In this document: positions 1,523 through 31,363 of the stretch, in pieces
Position numbering within the stretch: position 1 is the first letter of the stretch
Layout of the letters: the number at the start of each line of letters is the position of its first letter
From: Dirinaria sp. TL-2023a
Lineage: Eukaryota
Length of the DNA stretch: 33,130 bases
Assembly: GCA_051941275.1 (NCBI GenBank)
Contig: JAVEBF010000076.1
Coordinates: 1-33,130 of the forward strand
Reading direction: 5' to 3'
Position numbers and translations under genes: made by a program
The notes under the pieces: generated by a model
Database searches by the model: none
Told to the model about the DNA's origin: nothing
Seen by the model: only the letters and a program-made list of their open reading frames with translations

Positions 1523-2732
1523 TCATCGAAGTCCAATTACGCTCTGTATAATGTTACACGTCAGAATTTGCACTTCGCACTCTCGTAAAAGCCCGGATGG
1601 AGGAGGGAAGACTTTACCATTTCTAGCGTCCAAACTCTTCTTATCCAAATCTTCAGCTTGCCTTCAACGCCGTCTACGTTGTCCAGCTCTACGCCTTCCC
1701 ACCAACATCTCCGGGCCGGTTTCCTCCAAAATAGCAGCAGCTTCTGCGCCATGCCTACCACGTTGTTGTTGTTGGCAAGGTCGTTACCTTTGATATCCGT
1801 TCTGAGACGAGCAAGGGCCAGACTGCAAATGACGGCCTTGTTGGGTTCAGGCGCTCGATGGCCCCAACGGTCGTCGTTGTGGAAGCCTCTGCTGGGAAAT
1901 CAGCAACTATACCAGAGTGACAGGCGAGCCATAAATAAATCAATGGACAAGTAAAAAGTTAGCTTACCCAGCTGTGAGCATCTCAATCAGATGCTGCTCG
2001 GTCGTGCCTGCTTCTTCACTCCGCTTCAACCCGGAAAAGATGCCGTTTTGTTCTAGTAACGCCCTTCCAGCGGCTCGTTTTACCTCGATCATTTCCGGTT
2101 GATCTATCTCGGCTTTTGGAGGTATCGCGTAGAAATCGAGATCTTCTCGGAGTACAATTATACCTGCCCGGTCTTGAAGCATATCGCGCGCAGAATTCGA
2201 TGCGTCTTGTGATGTGCTTGGTGTCTCTGCGGTCGGCGAGGGTGATGAAGAGGGGATGGTTTGGGCGACGTTGCGGAAGAACTCGAGCATGTACTGAAGA
2301 GATGCAGGATCATACTATACACTTCGTGAGCAACAAACTCACAATGTTTTGTTAAAATAGAAGTACATCTACGGGGTACACATCCCCTTCGTGAAAGGAG
2401 TTCATATGCCCATCCGGAAGTAGCCCGTTCGGGAAGAGTGATAGGAGGACAAATTCAGGCAGAGTGAGGAGCTCATCACGTGAAAGCGTAAATCGGGTGC
2501 CTCTGCACGTGAATTAGAACAGGCCACAGGACACTCAATGGACTCTGCTTACCTTAAGTCGAGCGTGATATGCTCGTCTGCACCAACATCTAAAGCAATT
2601 GCATGAGCAAGTGGCATTGTGGGACCAGACAGGCACTTTCCCTTCACACATACCTGCTAATGTTGCTGTGGGCGCACCACCGCCCTGCTGCACCTGGGTG
2701 ATCAAGCTGGCAGGCCCACCGGCAGCAGCCAT
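1523..2732 (-). CDS. WHI2: Whi2 growth-regulation / stress-response protein (BTB/POZ-like, Psr1/2 phosphatase partner), AUG-initiated form of 296 aa; may extend N-terminally to about 3164
   Basis: Exons (minus) 2732-2654, 2589-2553, 2502-2367, 2314-1968, 1888-1618, 1543-1523, all GT-AG, total 891 nt. Translation: MAAAGGPASLITQVQQGG...DVGADEHITLDLRGTRFTLSRDELLTLPEFVLLSLFPNGL...YDPASLQYMLEFF...GIIVLREDLDFYAIPP...EQHLIEMLTAGGF...KLLLFWRKPARRCWW...IWIRRVWTLEMSVIGLR*. IIVLREDLDFY, LLLFWRKPARxCWW and RRVWTLE are Whi2 hallmarks. Confidence 0.92.
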
Positions 2733-3205
2733 CACGTAAGTAAACGAGTCAAGAGGACTGGGGCCCTCGGTATATGGCGGCGGTGGCTCTCCGTCTTCCG
2801 CAGCCTTGCCCGATGGCTCTCCCTTGCTATCCGGCGGAAGGGCAGCCTTAGTCTCTGCCTCTGTGCTTGTTGTTGTTGATGCAGAGACAGCTTCGAGCGG
2901 CGGCGGCGGCGGACAGAAAGCAGGAGGGGGAGAGGAATCTGGCTCGGTGACGGTGCTTTCTACCCGATCGGGAGGGTTTGCTGGGGGAAAGTATAGAGAG
3001 GAGAAGGCTGGCGGAGGGGGGGAGTTGGCGGCTGGTGCAGTGAGGGAGGTTTCGCGCTCTGTGTAAGGCGGTTCCTCTTCGTCGACGGGCACAGCGCTCG
3101 TTCGAAAGGGGAACTTATCAGACACGGACGAGCCGTCGCTGGAATCTCGCGTAGCCGACAACGTGATGGCGGTGTTCTTGTCCCTCTGGTGGTGATTTGG
3201 TGATA

Positions 3206-3321
3206 CTAGCGAATTGGAGTAGTCACGACCCTCCTCATAGGGAAGTCGCGGGTAAGGATTGGGTCTTGTGAGACTGATCAATATCAATTTGCTCAGATGG
3301 TCCAAAATCGCCCAGAGTCAT
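3206..3321 (-). promoter_or_regulatory. Two overlapping candidate uORFs in the WHI2 leader
   Basis: uORF1 3321-3235 (MTLGDFGPSEQIDIDQSHKTQSLPATSL*) and uORF2 3238-3206 (MRRVVTTPIR*) overlap as ATGA. Whether they lie within the transcript is unknown. Confidence 0.4.
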
Positions 3322-4052
3322 TGAATGTTTTCGTGCTCAGATGTCTCTATGATGCAGTGCGTTACGGAGGCGGATGAGGTAGCTTAGACAGTCATACAGC
3401 AACAAAGTACTCGTACCGTGGCTCGCGTGGGTTTAGGCTTGAGACTTTGAGAGGCTCTACTACCTTAAGGTATTTACTGTAATAATGATAAACTTTCCCA
3501 CCAGGGGATGCGGGAAGCTTGCTTTGATTGGTATCTGCCAAGCCCTGCCAACTGTACTGTACATAAGGTAATCTTATCTTGACTCTTTCATGAGCCTCGT
3601 CAATTTTCTACTTTCAATCACTTTATTAGTAGTCACTTTGCACTTCGCCACAGAAGTATCTCAAATTATGGGATCATGGCGCTGGTGGAATACGTCCTAG
3701 TCATCTATCGAAATCAACCTCAGGACGATATGGTTGATTGCGGTCAGTGCTGATTTAATCAATTGTGGGCAGGTTCTTCTTGTGGAACATGAGTTGTCAA
3801 GCGATCAGTCGTCTTCTATGACGCTTCAACCTTTGCTACTTCTTTGATCTCTATGGCGCTTCTCTTATGCCTCTTCCCTCCACAGACAGCACGTTCGTCG
3901 AGTGCAGCGCGCCTTGTACACGCAACTCAAAGCATGTCAACCCCTGAGCGTGAAGCACGACTGAATTTTAGATCCCTGTTCAATCAGCTCGGAGAGCCAA
4001 TATTGGGGCGGTTCACGTTTATGCGAGGTCTCCGTATAATGTGCTCGTCATG

Positions 4053-5213
4053 CTAGCCCAACTTCATCGAGCTCAAACCCTCGTCAGCATAGTCAACCAC
4101 GTGATAGCTTGAATTGGTAGTGTCATTGGGGTAGGAATGACCACCGGGGTGCAAAGGCTGCGGTGTCTATGCTTAATTAGCGGTTCCCGCGTTCTACGCA
4201 GCCTGTCAACGAGACTTCACGCAACACCCACCAACCACTCATACGAGTAGTTTAGGTGTGAGAGTGGGAGAGACTGACATCGACCAGCTTATCCCCTTCA
4301 ACGTGGACTTCTCGATCACGTATCTGCCGCATCAACGAGAGGAAGCTGCTTTGCTGGAACTTCTCGCTCCGGTCATGCTTGACATTATCGAGAAGCTGGC
4401 CAGCAGTTCTCGCTAGTTCATCTGCTTCATTTCTTTCCTTTCCTTCTTCTCTCTGGCTCTCGTCTGATATTCTGTCGGATCCTATTCGATCCTGTTCGAA
4501 TGGGTACATTTCTTGCAGGTCCTCAGCCATGTTAATGGGCGTTTGAGGTCCCTGTTGCGCGGACTGCTCGGCACATAGAGTCTCAAAAGCCCGTTCCATT
4601 GCCTCTTGATCTACATTTTCCTCGACTTGGTGTTCCTCTTGGCGCTCTTGCTGCGCTATTGGAGGTGATACGTGCTGATGGTGGGCAACATTAGAATTGA
4701 AGGGAACAAATGCGCTATAGCCACGCTGCTGCGACTTGAAAGGCGTTTGCGGCTGCTGTTGCTGGCGCATGAACTCCTGATGCCATCCTCCGGGTGCCGT
4801 GTGCTGGATGGGTGCTTCCCGCCGAAATTGGGCTTGGGGGACCGGTGAAGCCCGTGTTTGGTTCAAATTGAGGTTTTGGAAATCAGTGGCCCAACTCGGC
4901 GCACGAATATCCGAATGCGATAAAGTATCCGGGCTTTGGAAAGCAAACGGTTTAGGAGGAACAAATCCACCATCAAAACGACCGGCCTGAAAAGCCTCGA
5001 ACTCTGCGTCTAGAATGCCTGCATTAGGCCCTGGCGACGATCTGAAACCCTGCAAAATAGGCTGTCAGTGGCGGATCCACGAATGATACGGTGTCCTACC
5101 TCTTCAAGTGGTCGGTGAGGGGCAGAGCAGTCCTGTTGTAGTGTTCTATCCGCTGTAGTATGCTTCTGAAAATTTTGCAGAGCATTTGAGGGACCACAGA
5201 GCGTTTCAGCCAT
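4053..5213 (-). CDS. PEX20: Peroxin 20, PTS2 co-receptor (332 aa)
   Basis: Exons 5213-5100, 5049-4279, 4166-4053 (999 nt). N-terminus MAETLCGPSNALQNFQKH carries the conserved Cys. WxxxF motifs (SWATDF, GWHQEF). Pex7-binding segment KFQQSSFLSLMRQIRDREV. No TPR domain, so not Pex5. Confidence 0.88.
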
Positions 5214-6860: not shown

Positions 6861-9166
6861 TCAATCTTCCTCGCTATCGCTACCAAAGACAGCTTTGAAA
6901 ATTTCTTCGCCGGGTCTTTCTCTTTCCAAAGCGTCATTGCGCTCGGGGTCTACCATCACAGGTTCTTCCCGTTGGGCTGCACTGACCTGGCCTTGATACG
7001 CCTCGGATGGACTATCGCCTGTGTCAGGAACCTTGAAAGTCTGCCTCGTGCCAATCCGGCCAAAATTCGCCTCTTTCATCATAGCGCTGATCTCCTGTTT
7101 CCCAACCAACTCCAATCGCTTTTGTGGAAGCGCACTTGAGTGGGTCTGTGGCATAGAGGCTGATGCACCTTCGAAACCAGGTGGCTCGCCTCCTGGATCT
7201 ACATGCGTTGGTGGCTTCACGTTGAATCTCTTGCACAACAAGCGCGTGGGATGCCACTCCTTTACAGATCTCGTCAACGGCCCGAACATGCCTAAACTAG
7301 CAGCCTCTTCTGCTTCGTCTTTCTTTTTCTCCGCAGGTTTGCTGATCAGGGCATCCGTCCCCTCGACACTAGCAGAAGGGTCAGAAGCCTTATCAGGCCT
7401 ATCACTTGCTAGTTTCGGCGCTGACGATGAAGAAGTGAAGCGACTAGCCATCAGTCCTGTCATCGGCTTGAAAATCTGTGCCGCGTGGGCGAACTCTTGC
7501 ATTTCCTTCACCCAGTCATCGGTAGTGTGTCCCGCGGCTCTCTCTGGTACCTCGGAGTCAGCACCTCGAAGACCGGCACGGATTTCGAGATAGCTACGAT
7601 AACGGGAGCGTTTGGCTGTGTCCTCAGCATAGGGCATCCAGCCTGCAGTACCCCTTCCAAGGGCGGTTAGAGCGGTTTGAGAATCAAGCTGAGGGATCAA
7701 AGACTGAACGGACTTGGTCGAAGAAGGCTTATTAGAGAAAGTCGAGGCTTCATTGAGCGCCGGGGGAAGATTTGAATTATTAGTGGCAGAGGCTATTCGG
7801 GAGCGGGCGGCGGTGGAGAGATAGTCGAAGACTGATTTTCCAGGCAGTGCTGCTTCATCGAGAAGAGCAGCTCGAGACTTAGGAGAGAGCTTGGAAGCTT
7901 TGGCAACGTCGGCAGCAGAGACATAATTCTTAGCAACGCCATCCGGCGCTGAAGTGGAGAGTGCTTTGGAGGACTTCCAATCAGTCGGAATTTTTGGAGG
8001 GGGATATTGATTGTCTGAGGAAATAATCGACGCGAGCGGATCTAAACTGCTCGAGAGTATAAATCCATCAAGCGGTAGACGGCCATCGTGACAACGGCAA
8101 AAAGTAGAAGCCATTTTACCCGCAGTGGTCTTTTTGGAGACGAAAACGGGCTTGGAGTTCAAGAGAGGGTTTGCTGCAGTCCGACTGCTTGAAAGGGGTT
8201 TTTTCTTCTTCTTATCAGCGCCAATGGTCCTGTTGAACGATATTTTGGGGCCCATGTGGTAGGGATCCTCATCGTCAGAGCCATTGTCGTTCAGGATACC
8301 AACCCCAAAGCCACTACGGGCCGATGGTTTCTTTTTTGTCTTGCCATCTTTAGCTACAGTCCCGATCCCAAGTTCATCCTCCTCAGCATATGCTATGTTC
8401 GTCTTGGGGTTCGTGTGTTGACCGGCGAGCAGGCTCTGCCCTAGGTGGCCTTCGCCTTCAAAGCCCAACCCTTTTTTATCGTTCTTCTCAACGAACACTA
8501 TCATTTCCGAGTTCTTTGGAGCGAATAGATGAGTTTCTTGATTTTCTCCGGCATTATGCTGCTCATCTTCACCAAGCCTGGCTTTCCGCCTGACTTTCGG
8601 CCCAATACCTTGCCCTTCCCGCCAGCCCATCTTCCTCAGCAGTTTGACGCCCATGGTTTCACCAGAGGTACGCAGAATGTCTATTATTGGCGCTTTGCGA
8701 GCTGCCTCCCCCGCAGTGGATCCCAAACCAGAAAAGGCATCGGTGGTCTGGACTTTGCGTGCTTCCTCAGCGTCGGCGATGTCTTCGTCATCCATGAAGT
8801 CCTCCGCTTTTTGTTGCTTTGGCGCGCCATCCTTGTGTCTATTTGATCTGGAGGAAATAAAAGTTGTTGGTGTCCATCCTTCCTTCGACCCCACGGTGTT
8901 GAAGTAGCTGTACAGGCGCCAGTCAGTGCCTGCTCCGTGCAGATGAAGCCTTCAACTTACCCAGCGCTGAAACCACCCGTGAAAGCGCCATGCAAGCGCT
9001 TCCTTCCTTGCTCATCAGTGACCTCCTGCTTCCATACTGGGACATATGAGCCATCATCGTGGGTTTTGGGGTCCAACGGCGGCAGTGGAGTGCCATATAC
9101 GACGTAGGGCGCGGATTGAGCAGGCAGGTCTGCTTCGAATGTTGCACGCGATCGTTTGGAGGCCAT
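6861..9166 (-). CDS. GPATCH1: G-patch domain protein, GPATCH1/DUF1604 family (spliceosome-associated), 750 aa
   Basis: Exons 9166-8961 and 8907-6861 (2253 nt). DUF1604-type N-terminus [42 protein letters not shown]-patch [17 protein letters not shown]...KKGLGF. Also [24 protein letters not shown] and C-terminal [18 protein letters not shown]. Confidence 0.88.
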
Positions 9167-16848: not shown

Positions 16849-19832
16849 ATGGCTTCTCGGAAGCGTGGAAGAGAGGAGATGGAGTCGTCTGAGCCAGCCC
16901 CAGAAACCAGCATGTTAACAAAACTTCGTAACACGTGGGAATTTGCGAATATCATGCAATACATCTACATCTTCGGTCGGGCTGTCAAGATTGACGACGA
17001 CCTTACCATCGAGGTACTTCATACCCCAGAATGAAACCATGTCTAAGCCTTGCGGCCTGGGTCTTTGACGCGGTTCTATGAATCCATAAACTGATACTGT
17101 TCTTTCAGGATCTGGAAGCAGAATGCTTGAAACCGGAATCCTCAGAAAAGCTACTGGAGATCGGACTTGCTCTTCTGAAATGTGTTTCGTCGCACCGAGG
17201 ACTAAGGTAAAGCTCACTCTGGCGCTTTGACTTCACATTCTAAGTGCCATAACAGTGCAGAAATATTTGATGAATATACCCGCCGCCAATACATGGCCAA
17301 AGCCCCGAACCGAAATCCCTTCGGTGATGAGGAGGATCCTAAGAAATTCGCCGAGTTCGACGTCTTCACCAAGCTTCGAATCCTCGTACAACTTTCACAG
17401 TGGACTCTGATAAACCCCGATCGAATGAGAGAACGAATGTCAGAAACCAAGGACATCGACCAAATACAATGGGTATGGTCTACGCAGAGAGAGGAGACCT
17501 AGGAGAATATCTGCTAATAGAATCTGATGTAGCGCATTGAGGAGATCGGATACGATAAGCAAGAGCGACTGTATTTTGTTCTAGACGACAACCGGCTCTA
17601 CCGCCGCACTGATCCTGGCCTTCCGCCCCCTCCACCACCCAAGCCCAAAGCGAACTCTAAGAAGGCACGAGCTGCTGCTCGAGCTAACAAGCGGAGAAAG
17701 CTGGCGGAAGCCGAAGAGACAGCGAATGATGCCGATGGAGAAGGAGCTACGACCGAAGTAGAACAAGAAGCTTCTGAAGAAGATACGTTTGGTGGTCGAA
17801 AGTGGGAGTGTATAGCGGTTACACTCACCGAGTACAAAGACTTCCTGGAGAGTATACGAAAGAGCAGAGATGTCGACGAGAAGGCTCTCTTCAAATATCT
17901 TACCGAAGACGTCCTACCTATTATCGAGAAGGCGGAAGAAGATCAGCAGAAGAAAAAGGCTCGAAGGGAAAAGGAAATGATGAATTTACAGAAGCTAGCA
18001 ACTGCGAAAAGGTCTAGCAGACTAGCCGGCAAGCAGGAGAGGGAGCGAGAAGAGCAAGAAGCGGCAGAAGCCGAGCGTAAGAGGAAGGCTGATCTTGCTG
18101 CAGCGAAACAAAATCAAGAGCGGCAAAAGCAGATGGATGAGGCCCGGCAATCGCGCATGATAACGCGCGAACAACGTCTCAAGGAGCGAGAATACAAGCG
18201 AATATTGCACGAGGAAGAATTGACAAACATGTCCGAAGACAGCAAGAAGCTAGATGCTGGTGAGGCCCGGATGTCAGAACGAAACCTGAAGAAGGAGATG
18301 GACAAGAGAAGAAAGGAGCTCGCCGCGCTTGAACAGGAGGACGAATGGACTTTCGATTGTGCTGTCTGTGGCGTACATGGCGAGAATCTGGTAAAGCAGC
18401 CAAACTCATTGCATGGCGATTCCGTACTGATCTCGTATGCTAGGATGACGGTACCCACAGCATAGCTTGCGAGAAATGCAATGTCTGGCAGCACAGTGCA
18501 TGCCACGGAATCTCTCAAGAAGCGGCTGAGAAGGACGACTTCCACTTTATCTGCCATGACTGTAAACGTCGTGCCGAGGACGCGCTCAAGCCGAAGATAC
18601 CAAGCCTCAAATTTCGCCTGGGCTCGTCATCTTCACCACCATCTCAGAAGGTTGAAGTGCGAGTCCCCATGGATTCGAAGAAGCGTAAATCTAACGAAAA
18701 TGCAAAACTCCCTCCCATGAAGAAATTCAAGCCAGCTAGCGAAGCCAAGCCCCATATTACTCCCGGCGCAAGGACTTACTCCAACGGATTGTACGGTGGC
18801 CAGAACGGTATGCATCAGAGCATGATGAGTGGGCCAACGCTGTCTCCCCAAGGACAGCCGCCTCAGCCACCGGATCAAGCTAGCAATAATGGTCAAGCTA
18901 CTTCACCGCCTCCGGGACTGCGGTCCCCACCCGGGCCACCCGCGCACGCCAATGGCTACACTCACCATGTCAATTATCAGAATGGCTATACGCCTCGACC
19001 TCATTACACTTTCGAGAATACTCATCCCTCTACCTCCAGTGGCAAGGGGCAGACTCATAAAAGCCCCAACACAGCTTGGTCCGCAACATATCAACCAGCG
19101 CAGCACACCCACACGCCGCAGCAAGCGACACCCGTTCCGCCATCTGCGAATCCCTTTCATAACTCTTTCGACCGTCAGCGTCCAACCTCGTCTGGTTCAC
19201 CAGTGATGAACGGTCCTACATTGTCGCCTGCGCCCAGTGCTTATAGTCCAGCTACCAACGGGTATCATCAGAATGCCAACACCAACGGCTTACCATCCCA
19301 AACATACTCTCTTCCACCACCTCTACCTCCACCTGTGAAGCATCAATCTTCACCTCCTGCACCCGCCCCACAACAACTGCCGTCTTCAAGCCCAGCCATG
19401 GGCCCCAATCTGCAGCGACGAGCCCCACCATCCCCAGGCTTGTCACCCACAAAGCATCCTTCACCGAAACCAGCTGCATTCGATTCCAATTCTGTTGATG
19501 CAACACCGAGCCCGATGACGGGTCTCAAAGCGCAACAGCAAAACCAGTATTCACCCTCCAGCGTCGACCCCATGAAACAATCGTCTCCACCACGTCCACC
19601 ACCAAACTCATCTTCAAGCCCAGTCATGGCACCAGCTCTCCCAACCCAAGCTTCTATTAGTCCGGGCTTCTCGCCCACGAAACAAAGCTCGCCCAAGCAG
19701 CTTCCAGCCGTCGGCAATAGTGTAGAGAAGGTCATGCCGCCTGTAGAGAACTTATCACCAAGTCCGCAACAAACATCAGGTCGTGTACAGCAGCACCACA
19801 GAACGAGCAATGGAGAAATCCACGGGTTCTAG
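16849..19832 (+). CDS. DDT/WHIM(WSD)-like plus PHD finger chromatin protein, likely ISWI accessory (RSF1-like architecture), 908 aa
   Basis: Exons 16849-17013, 17109-17206, 17256-17472, 17533-18390, 18444-19832 (2727 nt). N-terminal WEFANIMQYIYIFG (DDT-like). FAEFDVFTKLRILVQL (WHIM1-like). WRIEEIGYDKQERLYFVLDDNRLYR (WSD-like). Coiled coil follows. PHD FDCAVCG...DDGTHSIACEKCNVWQHSACH...FHFICHDC is split by intron 4. Pro/Ser/Gln-rich tail. Confidence 0.8.
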
Positions 19833-29595: not shown

Positions 29596-30363
29596 TCAGT
29601 CCTCGAAACCTCCCCAGCCGTCGTCATCACTTGACACAGCATCCTCGTCATCCAGCCGTACCACCTGCCCTTCTCCACCTTCCTTCCCCTCCCCGTCCAT
29701 CCATCCCTTCAATCTCTCGTCGCCCAAAGTATCCTTGGCCCTTAGCCTTAAAACCTTACTCCACCCTTCCCTTCCCAACCTCTCAATAGGCAGCATCAGC
29801 CTCTGCAAAACACCGTCCCCCATATCCTCAACCACACCCTCCAACCCATCAACCCAAACATCAAGAATATGATACCTCAACCCATCCGGCCACCCCTTGC
29901 GCCGCCCTTCCGTCCCCGGACCTGTACTCAACATCCCCTCATCCACAACCTCCAAATATTGCCCAACCAACCGCTCGTCCCACCCATTGGCGGCCAAATA
30001 CTCAAACCCAGCACTCACATACCCCCTCATCACCAACAAATATTTATCTAACCGCAGCCCCGGGATCGAAGACCATTGCTCCGACATCGTAGTCCAGAAG
30101 GCGCGCACGAAGGCCACGAAAGTCTCGGGCGGCAAGGGCGGGAGCAAGGAGCACAGTGAGCGGCAGAGAGATTGTTGAGGCAGTGGCCGGTCCGTGTGGA
30201 AGAGGGTGTAGAACAGCCCTTTCCAGATTTTCAGGTGGTCAAGGGGGGTGAGTGCGCGGGAGGGCGTGGAGAGGTAGAGGCGTAGAGAGGAGAGAGCTTT
30301 TTCGCGCGTGGGCCGGGAGGAGGAGGCGAGGGAGCGGAGGAAAGGCGGGGGTGGAGCAGACAT
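29596..30363 (-). CDS. RRP1: Ribosomal RNA-processing protein Rrp1 (Nop52 family), 255 aa
   Basis: Single-exon ORF. FLRSLASSSRPTREKAL, LKIWKGLFYTLFHTDRPLPQQ, FWTTMSEQWSSIPGLRLDKYLLVMR, GLRYHILDVWVD; acidic tail DDGWGGFED. Confidence 0.9.
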   Translation of the reverse strand: MSAPPPPFLRSLASSSRPTREKALSSLRLYLSTPSRALTPLDHLKIWKGLFYTLFHTDRPLPQQSLCRSLCSLLPPLPPETFVAFVRAFWTTMSEQWSSIPGLRLDKYLLVMRGYVSAGFEYLAANGWDERLVGQYLEVVDEGMLSTGPGTEGRRKGWPDGLRYHILDVWVDGLEGVVEDMGDGVLQRLMLPIERLGREGWSKVLRLRAKDTLGDERLKGWMDGEGKEGGEGQVVRLDDEDAVSSDDDGWGGFED

Positions 30364-31363
30364 TTTTGGTGGTCGTCGTAGTATGGTCGAGGGGCCCTTG
30401 TGGGAATATAGGAGCTGAAGGTGGTTCAGACTTCGGAGATCTGGTTAGCTAGCGGAGCTGGCTTTGGCTGCATGGTATAGCAGAAAGGAAAGGAAAAAAC
30501 TGGGGCCAAGGGTAGAGTGTTTTCACGTCCTCACGACAAAGCGATGGGATTATTAAACCAAGATAGGAGAGGACCCACATCTATTGTTTTGAGCAAAACA
30601 TTAACATAGGCGTTCCGGACCGTGCACCGGGTGGAGAATGGAAAGTATTAGCGCCCGACGCCTTACCCTTTCAAGCCTCGCGGACCGAGGCGAATCCGCT
30701 AAGAATATATAGATGAATAGCTAATCCATTAGAAAAGCTATTTCGAAACCTGGAGAAGTAGTTCCACTTACCTCTGCAACCTCAACTTTGACCGGCTCTG
30801 CGTTGTATACCACACATCCTGCTATCACACTTACTTCTCTCTATAATGAATCTACCGAATCGGGCCGAAAATTAAGCTATACACTAGTAAATTCAATTTT
30901 AGGCAGCAATATACTAAAAAAAATGAATTTACAATCATCAGAGTGAGTACGACCCCGCCGAGATGAAGACTTCTCATCTTTGCAACTTACTTCTCGTCTG
31001 CAACTCTCACATCTTGCAATCTGCTACCGATTTCCGTCTCGCCGAAACGATCGATTTCTACTGTCAGTAATTGACTAGTTGCAGAGCTAAAGAAGAGACA
31101 GTCTACCTCACTATCCGCTCTCCAAATCCTCACCTGCCCATTCAGCTCAATCTGGATGCGTGCTAATACTTCAATTTTTCACTTCTTTACTTCTCTCCGA
31201 TATTGCTAGGCTTTGCAGAAACAGTTGATTCTCTAGTAGAGTCAACTTAAATTCTCACTGCTCTAGTGTAGAGTCTACTGGTGTTTGAAGGTCGAAGCAA
31301 GAAGTGTATAGTCACGATCAAGGAGCATCACAGCTATCTAGTGATTTCAATAGGTCTGCAGCA

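Follow-up and report, generated by a model that had tools for sequence, protein, structure and literature searches.

Where does the Whi2 protein of filamentous fungi begin? The question is raised by a stretch of 33,130 nucleotides from Dirinaria sp. TL-2023a, a lichen-forming ascomycete (GenBank assembly GCA_051941275.1, contig JAVEBF010000076.1, positions 1 to 33,130), referred to below as the window, which carries a WHI2 gene on its minus strand. The first AUG of this gene, at 2730 to 2732, opens a product of 296 amino acids, and the reading frame remains open upstream of it. The initial annotation of the window proposed that this upstream part is an N-terminal extension initiated at a codon other than AUG. 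The main result of the present analysis is that the extension is, by comparison of its orthologues, a conserved protein segment common to all five sampled classes of Pezizomycotina, and that it is most likely translated from a near-cognate codon in a short ATC-ACG-TTG cluster at 3159 to 3167. That leaky scanning makes both Whi2 isoforms, long and short, is rather likely as well, with somewhat less assurance.

From stop to stop, the WHI2 frame occupies positions 2535 to 3317 of the minus strand, ATG 2732 included, and it is closed upstream by an in-frame TGA at 3318 to 3320; it had been described as open to at least 3305. Scanning all three frames placed the ATGs of this strand at 2730-2732, 3236-3238, 3319-3321 and 3393-3395, which leaves 503 nucleotides (2733 to 3235) without ATG in any frame, as the initial annotation had stated. 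Counted from the TTG of the cluster, the extension covers 2733 to 3161, comprises 143 codons, lacks Met codons and is free of ATG in all three frames. The three consecutive near-cognate codons announced at its 5' end are indeed in frame with ATG 2732, with ATC at 3167-3165, ACG at 3164-3162 and TTG at 3161-3159; they are preceded by AACACCGCC, and the purine reported at position -3 was found for both ATC (G) and ACG (A), the corresponding base being A for TTG. The composition of the ATG-free stretch predicts between 2.4 ATGs (first-order model) and 4.6 (base frequencies), and the run of 503 nucleotides is the second-longest on the minus strand of the window, the longest being 618 nucleotides at 17538-18155, while two further runs, of 794 and 511 nucleotides, occur on the plus strand. 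Taken alone, the run is only moderately unusual, and the case therefore rests on the comparison of orthologues. As for the other runs, those at 7430-8223 (plus strand) and 17538-18155 (minus strand) are both antisense to long open reading frames, and a further one lies at 29872-30382 (plus strand).

The transcript was followed with contigs assembled from four RNA-seq runs of one lichen-metagenome sample, which are about 97% identical to the window and come from a close relative or strain. Two contigs, of 1720 and 1751 nucleotides, have five introns removed (1544-1617, 1889-1967, 2315-2366, 2503-2552 and 2590-2653), all of which read CT..AC on the plus strand and thus GT..AG on the strand of the gene. 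Upstream of these introns, both contigs are continuous and show no joint from 2654 to 3439 and 3456, respectively; a third contig spans 3168-3460, and RNA cover is absent from 3461 to 3680. The 5' ends of the contigs (3439, X1 record 1; 3456, X2 record 4; 3460, X3 record 8; minus strand) give a minimum extent of the WHI2 leader rather than a mapped start of transcription. Since the contigs are unspliced from 2654 to 3439 or 3456, the mRNA holds the whole extension, the candidate starts and the in-frame stop, and the assembled mRNA is without a spliced upstream exon. Two outcomes that the initial annotation had considered fatal to its proposal, namely a start of transcription downstream of about 3100 and an in-frame AUG supplied by a spliced upstream exon, thus disagree with the assembled RNA of this relative, which reaches 3439-3460 and is unspliced past the in-frame stop.

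The RNA joints define the rest of the gene on the minus strand: the part of exon 1 that follows the AUG (2654 to 2732, up to the joint 2589/2654), exon 2 (2553 to 2589), exon 3 (2367 to 2502), exon 4 (1968 to 2314), exon 5 (1618 to 1888) and the coding part of exon 6 (1523 to 1543), whose stop codon at 1525-1523 was identified from the translation of the joined exons. Joined together, these exons give 439 amino acids from the TTG and 296 from ATG 2732. The spliced product of the window matches a transcript-derived protein (P0002) at 406 of 425 residues. Relative to the window, the RNA has a 3-nucleotide deletion at 2897, inside the run of proline codons of the extension, that keeps the frame. 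A comparable arrangement was seen in a Botrytis-like fungus (L060), in which an intron-less contig of 1733 nucleotides has 576 nucleotides before the Met with no in-frame ATG, a TTG 150 codons and an in-frame stop 189 codons upstream of that Met.

Is the extension a protein? When the 171-residue product of 3167-2655 was used as a query, 347 proteins among 3207 candidates were matched at E<=1e-3, and the best 120 of these 347 matches belong to Lecanoromycetes, Dothideomycetes and Eurotiomycetes. With a Helotiales query and a Sordariales query, two further classes were reached, Leotiomycetes (Botrytis, Sclerotinia and Monilinia) and Sordariomycetes (Podospora, Cercophora, Chaetomium, Sordaria macrospora, S. 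brevicollis, Trichoderma, Cordyceps, Xylaria and Colletotrichum). The homologues have in common the blocks PPPFSSLYF, ETKAALPxDTKGE and EPPPxYxEGSSPLxSFTY(V/L)MAAAGG. Names given to the matches by their sources, which were not curated here, include 'General stress response protein Whi2' and 'WHI2-like protein P4H10.16c'. For analyses at the codon level, 80 metagenome loci were combined with the window into a set of 81 orthologous sequences, and codon alignments were built from the loci. The ratio of non-synonymous to synonymous substitution rates (dN/dS) of the extension in the window is 0.13 to 0.38 against 20 loci, the synonymous rate (dS) being saturated for 8 more, and its median over the 168 usable pairs of 406 is 0.23. 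Stops inside the conserved extension were found in none of the 81 sequences. The remark that the extension reads like real protein is borne out by the matches in five classes and by these ratios; indeed, frame conservation, dN/dS below 1 and depletion of AUG (see below), which the initial annotation had put forward as the signs to look for in orthologues, were all three found, and the interrupting stops that would have spoken against coding were not.

The extension is rich in Pro, Ser and Ala, and neither a structure nor a Pfam domain is predicted for it. A Pfam search with P0002, a second homologue (P0006) and the exon-1 product (P0001) returned no family, BTB/POZ included, at E<=0.01. A search of the ESM Atlas with the extension gave a best match of 0.76, under the meaningful level. 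The AlphaFold model of P0002, made with 26 aligned sequences, was too poor for a fold search (mean per-residue confidence, pLDDT, of 47 and predicted template modelling score, pTM, of 0.31); its residues 1-161 have no secondary structure and pLDDT values of 25-46. With the low confidence that such a model allows, the extension is compatible with disorder.

The lack of a conventional start is also general. Among the 75 sequences that have an upstream stop (the 6 others of the 81 leave their contig before any such stop), 71 show no in-frame ATG from this stop to the conserved Met; the remaining four (L009, L013, L014 and L015) form one lichen lineage with an in-frame ATG 244 codons before the Met. 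In several loci (L018, L030, L054, L065, L036, L008 and L077), and also in the closest relatives of the window (L006, L007, L012 and L017), the distance from the upstream in-frame stop to the cluster is only 4 to 9 codons, so that the start is confined to a few codons. The absence of an AUG has left its mark on gene models, as the initial annotation had anticipated in stating that standard annotation would miss the long form. Because no AUG is available, WHI2 models are fused to the ABC-ATPase, dipeptidyl-peptidase-3 or peroxin-20 genes next to them, misnamed or left incomplete: 23 of the 120 best of the 347 matches are fusions of 1201-1318 amino acids with ABC-ATPase domains, other models that bear the extension are named dipeptidyl peptidase 3, fatty acid hydroxylase or peroxin 20, and models of the Joint Genome Institute (JGI) flagged 'partial' start without Met. 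The N-termini that annotators chose upstream of the cluster have nothing in common across orders.

Conservation begins abruptly at the cluster. In Lecanoromycetes it starts at (T/A)-I-(T/K/A)-L-S-x-T-R-D-S-S, of which recognisable variants exist in the other classes. In an unanchored MAFFT protein alignment, 33 of the 51 unique loci have a TTG in the column of the TTG of the window, each of them accompanied by a purine at -3 (29 A and 4 G), while the neighbouring Ser and Thr codons vary synonymously. In 28 windows anchored on the TTG, its T is the sole invariant column and conservation ends at about 10 nucleotides upstream, an invariance that is partly due to the anchoring itself. By-eye assignment of the variants in loci where the alignment placed no TTG gave CC-A(C/T)C-ACG-GCG in Eurotiomycetes, in which the ACG is flanked by A at -3 and G at +4 and precedes TTG, CTG, TTC or CGY, and, in some Dothideomycetes, ACG GTG GAT, ATC GTG GAT or AAG GTG GAT where relatives have AAA TTG GAT. 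Switching between TTG, GTG and CTG alters the amino acid and keeps the near-cognate character, which is the behaviour expected of a start codon. The ACG is invariant in 9 unique Leotiomycete loci and in Eurotiomycetes, its position reading GCA, ACA, AAA, AAG or ACC in Lecanoromycetes, and the ATC is the least conserved of the three codons. The initial annotation had looked to a conserved AUC/ACG position; a near-cognate site is indeed conserved, with TTG as its most widely kept codon, ACG being kept in two classes and ATC least of all. For the window, the best candidate on these comparisons is the TTG at 3161-3159, and the ACG at 3164-3162 comes second; more than one codon of the cluster may be in use. 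At the protein level, a model of Cordyceps sp. (P0203) starts with MSGTRDPG, its Met being aligned to the Leu of the cluster.

Downstream of the extension, the AUG at 2730 to 2732 stands in the context GTG ATG G, a G occupying both -3 and +4, and none of the 81 sequences lacks the Met of 2732. In 51 unique loci, the final 125 codons of the extension were compared with codon-order shuffles; they contain no in-frame ATG and 8 out-of-frame ATGs where 85 were expected, totals that overstate the number of independent events given the relatedness of the loci; the exceptional out-of-frame ATGs are confined to three lineages. In a conserved exon of the same gene used as a control (41 loci), 91 ATGs were counted for 97.9 expected. 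Depletion of AUG out of frame is a signature of leaky scanning, since it implies that scanning ribosomes must cross the extension to reach the AUG. The proposal that leaky scanning would yield forms of about 440 and 296 residues agrees with the frame lengths of 439 and 296 and with the depletion.

It is conceivable that the long form alone matters, and that AUG 2732 is a conserved internal Met, with no short isoform and no leaky-scanning switch. This Met lies inside a block that is conserved on both sides (SPLDSFTYVMAAAGGAASIITQVQQ), where it could have a structural or binding role, and segments rich in Pro and Ser commonly contain few Met. But ATGs out of frame carry no cost in a plain coding region, and yet these are the ones that are missing from the extension and not from the control exon; moreover, the favourable context of AUG 2732 and the leakiness expected of a UUG start argue that the AUG is used. 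We regard an exclusively long product as unlikely, although it is the alternative that survives best.

Production of two isoforms would proceed as follows. The leader of the WHI2 mRNA reaches at least about 280-300 nucleotides upstream of the start cluster, and some of the ribosomes that scan it would initiate at ATC-ACG-TTG, best at the UUG of 3161-3159 with its A at -3, and second at the ACG. They would produce a Whi2 of 439 amino acids, the first 143 residues of which contain no Met and include a conserved PPxY motif. Most ribosomes would bypass this weak start, meet no AUG in any frame over the intervening 429 nucleotides and so arrive at AUG 2732, where they would begin the form of 296 amino acids. 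The ratio of long to short isoform would then be set by the stringency of start-codon selection. As an initiator, UUG is weak, and leakiness is to be expected of it. In yeast, GRS1 (UUG) and ALA1 (ACG) have an upstream near-cognate codon and a downstream AUG that give two proteoforms by leaky scanning. The likeness to WHI2 is that a weak upstream near-cognate codon and a downstream AUG give two N-terminal forms from one mRNA; the difference is that the yeast extensions are short mitochondrial targeting signals, whereas that of Whi2 has 143 residues and a PPxY.

Several observations weigh against initiation in the cluster, or limit what can be built on it. In every species, the case is built from sequences and RNA contigs. 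A single sample, from a relative about 3% divergent, supplied the RNA, which has 28 unlisted differences from the window, and contigs of this kind can show neither the start of transcription nor rare splice forms. Relatedness among the loci means that a count over them is not one of independent events. The automatic alignment did not place a TTG in the relevant column in 18 of the 51 unique loci, mostly Eurotiomycetes and Capnodiales-like Dothideomycetes, and the Leu position reads TTC in L067 and L074 and CTT in L073. The leader contains three upstream AUGs, which, together with the weakness of UUG, mean that the long form may be rare. The first of them opens an upstream open reading frame (uORF) of 3 codons, ATG ACT GTC TAA, in the WHI2 frame (3384 to 3395, at position -234 from the TTG); the second opens one of 28 codons, out of frame (3235 to 3321, at -160), whose own TGA overlaps the next ATG; and the third opens one of 10 codons (3206 to 3238), its ATG being a GTG in the RNA of the close relative (3238 T>C, plus strand). 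All three lie on the minus strand and end 44-222 nucleotides before the cluster, with no overlap with the conserved coding part. Lastly, some lineages do have AUGs further upstream. The four loci of the lichen lineage and a protein (P0008) have an ATG in frame with the TTG and 101 codons ahead of it; between this ATG, some 300 nucleotides upstream, and the TTG, the frame is open and apparently similar in P0008 and L009 (for example, KIKPARQ), and the lineage may have an AUG-started, still longer Whi2. In Chaetothyriales, models from Rhinocladiella (P0081) and Fonsecaea (P0083) have in common a further N-terminal block, started by a Met and far upstream of the extension (SHSxLFGLxGQKRxSxxAGAGAGSGIIGTSGHxGAANKS), which is either a real upstream exon in this order or a fused small neighbouring gene.

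These last cases favour the view that the long form starts conventionally, at an AUG in an upstream exon or behind an alternative promoter that the contigs missed: rare isoforms are lost from contigs, all the runs come from one sample, and some models take as their start an ATG that precedes the cluster by 5-7 codons (P0006 from Alectoria, P0129 from Sclerotinia borealis and P0125 from Botrytis). Against it, the exon of the relative has no joint between 2654 and 3456 and spans the in-frame stop, and the mRNA-like contig of the Botrytis-like fungus is likewise unbroken; conservation stops within about 10 nucleotides upstream of the cluster, the N-termini annotated upstream of the cluster have nothing in common across orders, and the 'partial' JGI models lack a Met. 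We consider a hidden upstream AUG very unlikely.

Still less probable is an extension that is never translated, that is, a 5' leader conserved for reasons that act at the level of RNA, with the 296-residue protein as the only product. Its best argument is the Neurospora crassa literature, in which WHI-2 has 297 (PMC6987382) or 298 amino acids (PMC4184795) and the deletion was rescued by an HA-tagged construct expressed from the native promoter (PMC6987382, PMC4184795); the extension has, in addition, no predicted structure or Pfam domain. Yet the dN/dS values, the frame open in 81 sequences out of 81 and the length differences that keep the frame are those of a coding sequence, and the search for a consensus RNA fold around the start gave none. 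The complementation would not discriminate between the readings, because the construct presumably kept the native leader and the tag would be in frame inside a long form too. Finally, access to the extension by frameshifting or reinitiation from an AUG-started uORF, for which the uORFs of the leader and the frameshifting raised for cpc-1 by Ivanov et al. (PMC5487733, from the passages available) could be invoked, is hardly credible, as the uORFs end 44-222 nucleotides before the cluster, the nearest upstream AUG is absent in the close relative, and no uORF peptide is common among loci.

The leader was also examined for features of its own. Upstream ATGs are common within 400 nucleotides of the cluster, but their positions, frames and peptides differ among loci, and a conserved uORF was rejected. 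A short uORF often ends about 75-125 nucleotides before the TTG, where chance gives about as many ATGs, and we make no claim on it; ATGs are scarce in the last 75 or so nucleotides before the TTG (7 in 28 loci). On the other side of the cluster, a stem of 4 base pairs, ACGG-N5-CCGT (3123-3136, minus strand), lies 26-39 nucleotides past the T of TTG; its conservation extends over Lecanoromycetes, Leotiomycetes and some Dothideomycetes, and it coincides in part with the codons of the conserved peptide SDGSSV. A downstream hairpin that boosts the start was rejected: RNAalifold gave no consensus structure, the single-sequence fold had a z-score of 0.05, paired cells amounted to 70.6% against 67% in shuffles, and a compensatory change from A-U to G-C was seen only in L038 and L066.

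What would the long form bring that the short one lacks? Its extension contains two proline-tyrosine motifs. The first, E-P-P-Y in the window (3063 to 3071, minus strand), is not a canonical PPxY, and is canonical in Leotiomycetes and Sordariomycetes, as PPRY or PPQY. The second, P-P-P-P-Y within EPPPPYTEG (2772 to 2786, minus strand), is a canonical PPxY, and reads PPAY in Leotiomycetes and Sordariomycetes; in 26 aligned sequences, E112, P113, P114, P115, Y117 and E119 (P0002 numbering) are invariant. The WW domains of Rsp5 interact with PPXY proteins (PMC2171029). From the sequence, it is reasonable to suppose that the PPxY would recruit a ubiquitin ligase of the Nedd4/Rsp5 type to the long form only. 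Whi2 resembles the partners of these ligases in that the PPxY is kept in the 26 aligned long forms, and differs in that its motif is known from sequence; no link between Whi2 and Rsp5 through a PY motif was found among the papers listed, which mention either Whi2 or PPxY but never both, and PMC5482819 refers to Rsp5 just briefly. That a conserved segment of some 140 to 280 residues carries an invariant PPxY suggests that the gene has an isoform which has escaped study and whose partners or stability differ.

Whi2, or WHI-2, regulates TORC1, cell fusion, circadian output and appressorium formation (PMC6126876, PMC6987382, PMC5800702, PMC8295519), and its binding to the Psr1/CSP-6 phosphatase is reported for N. 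crassa and M. oryzae (PMC5800702, PMC8295519). The N. crassa protein has two BTB/POZ domains (PMC6987382), and the available text of the CSP-6 paper describes WHI-2 as 'one band below' the 70-kDa CSP-6 cluster, with no size. We tentatively propose that Whi2 of Pezizomycotina is an ancient two-isoform switch, in which the long form, started at UUG or ACG, would couple the Whi2-Psr1/CSP-6 phosphatase to a Nedd4/Rsp5-type ligase, the short form, started at AUG, would be without this link, and the ratio would be set by start stringency and by the uORFs. Such a switch is at present doubtful in its full form. If it existed, the state of initiation under nutrient stress would feed into TORC1 restraint, cell fusion and clock output, and work on the 297-residue N. 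crassa protein and on its homologues in plant pathogens would cover only part of the output of the gene.

Extensions of this kind are already known. In the part of the cpc-1 work available (Ivanov et al. 2017, PMC5487733), N. crassa CPC1 and its Pezizomycotina homologues have an N-terminal extension initiated at near-cognate codons. The likeness to WHI2 is extensive: the same fungal group, a frame that stays open a long way 5' of the annotated AUG and has no AUG in phase there, an extension conserved as protein, near-cognate codons with A at -3, uORFs in the leader, and annotators unable to place the start. The differences are that cpc-1 encodes a transcription factor and Whi2 is a BTB-type signalling protein, that several near-cognate codons of cpc-1 were shown to function in extracts and reporters whereas the Whi2 case is known from sequence, and that Whi2 has a single short cluster at a sharp 5' edge of conservation and an extension depleted of AUG over its whole length, in all frames. 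A second precedent is human KCTD11, in which an upstream AUU start adds 39 residues to a protein long annotated too short (PMC6566181, from the passages available). KCTD11 belongs to a family of BTB proteins compared with Whi2, acts like yeast Whi2 (PMC6566181), and has its N-terminal part in frame upstream of the first ATG, as in Whi2; its own extension completes the BTB domain, whereas that of Whi2 would lie wholly upstream of the folded part and looks disordered in the model. Its start is AUU rather than UUG or ACG, and nothing suggests a common origin of the two extensions.

As far as the literature could be judged, partly from passages, neither a non-AUG start nor a longer form of Whi2/WHI-2 (NCU10518) was found described, and what was found on near-cognate N-terminal extensions in Pezizomycotina concerns cpc-1 only. 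We found no paper on the Whi2 case, which apparently is undescribed, and Whi2 would be the second well-supported non-AUG extension that is Pezizomycotina-wide after cpc-1, in a gene of nutrient signalling. In model and pathogenic fungi, WHI2 has been studied as the short form only. The published length of N. crassa WHI-2 matches the short form of 296 amino acids, and the sister genus Sordaria and other Sordariales have the extension. If the present reading is true, one should find upstream of NCU10518, in frame, PPPQYP, PPPFSSLF and EPPPAYSEGSSPL, with no ATG and with a near-cognate codon at I-T-(L/V)-S.

Two neighbouring genes lie upstream of WHI2 on the same strand: a probable PEX20-type peroxin at 4255-5064, with a PEX18/PEX21 C-terminal domain at 18.3 bits for a cut-off of 25, and a DUF1604/G-patch protein at 6864-8951. 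Elsewhere, models that bear the extension are named 'Peroxin 20' (Metarhizium) and 'G patch domain-containing protein' (JGI, Colletotrichum), which suggests that the order of these genes is conserved and that the models are fused or misnamed.

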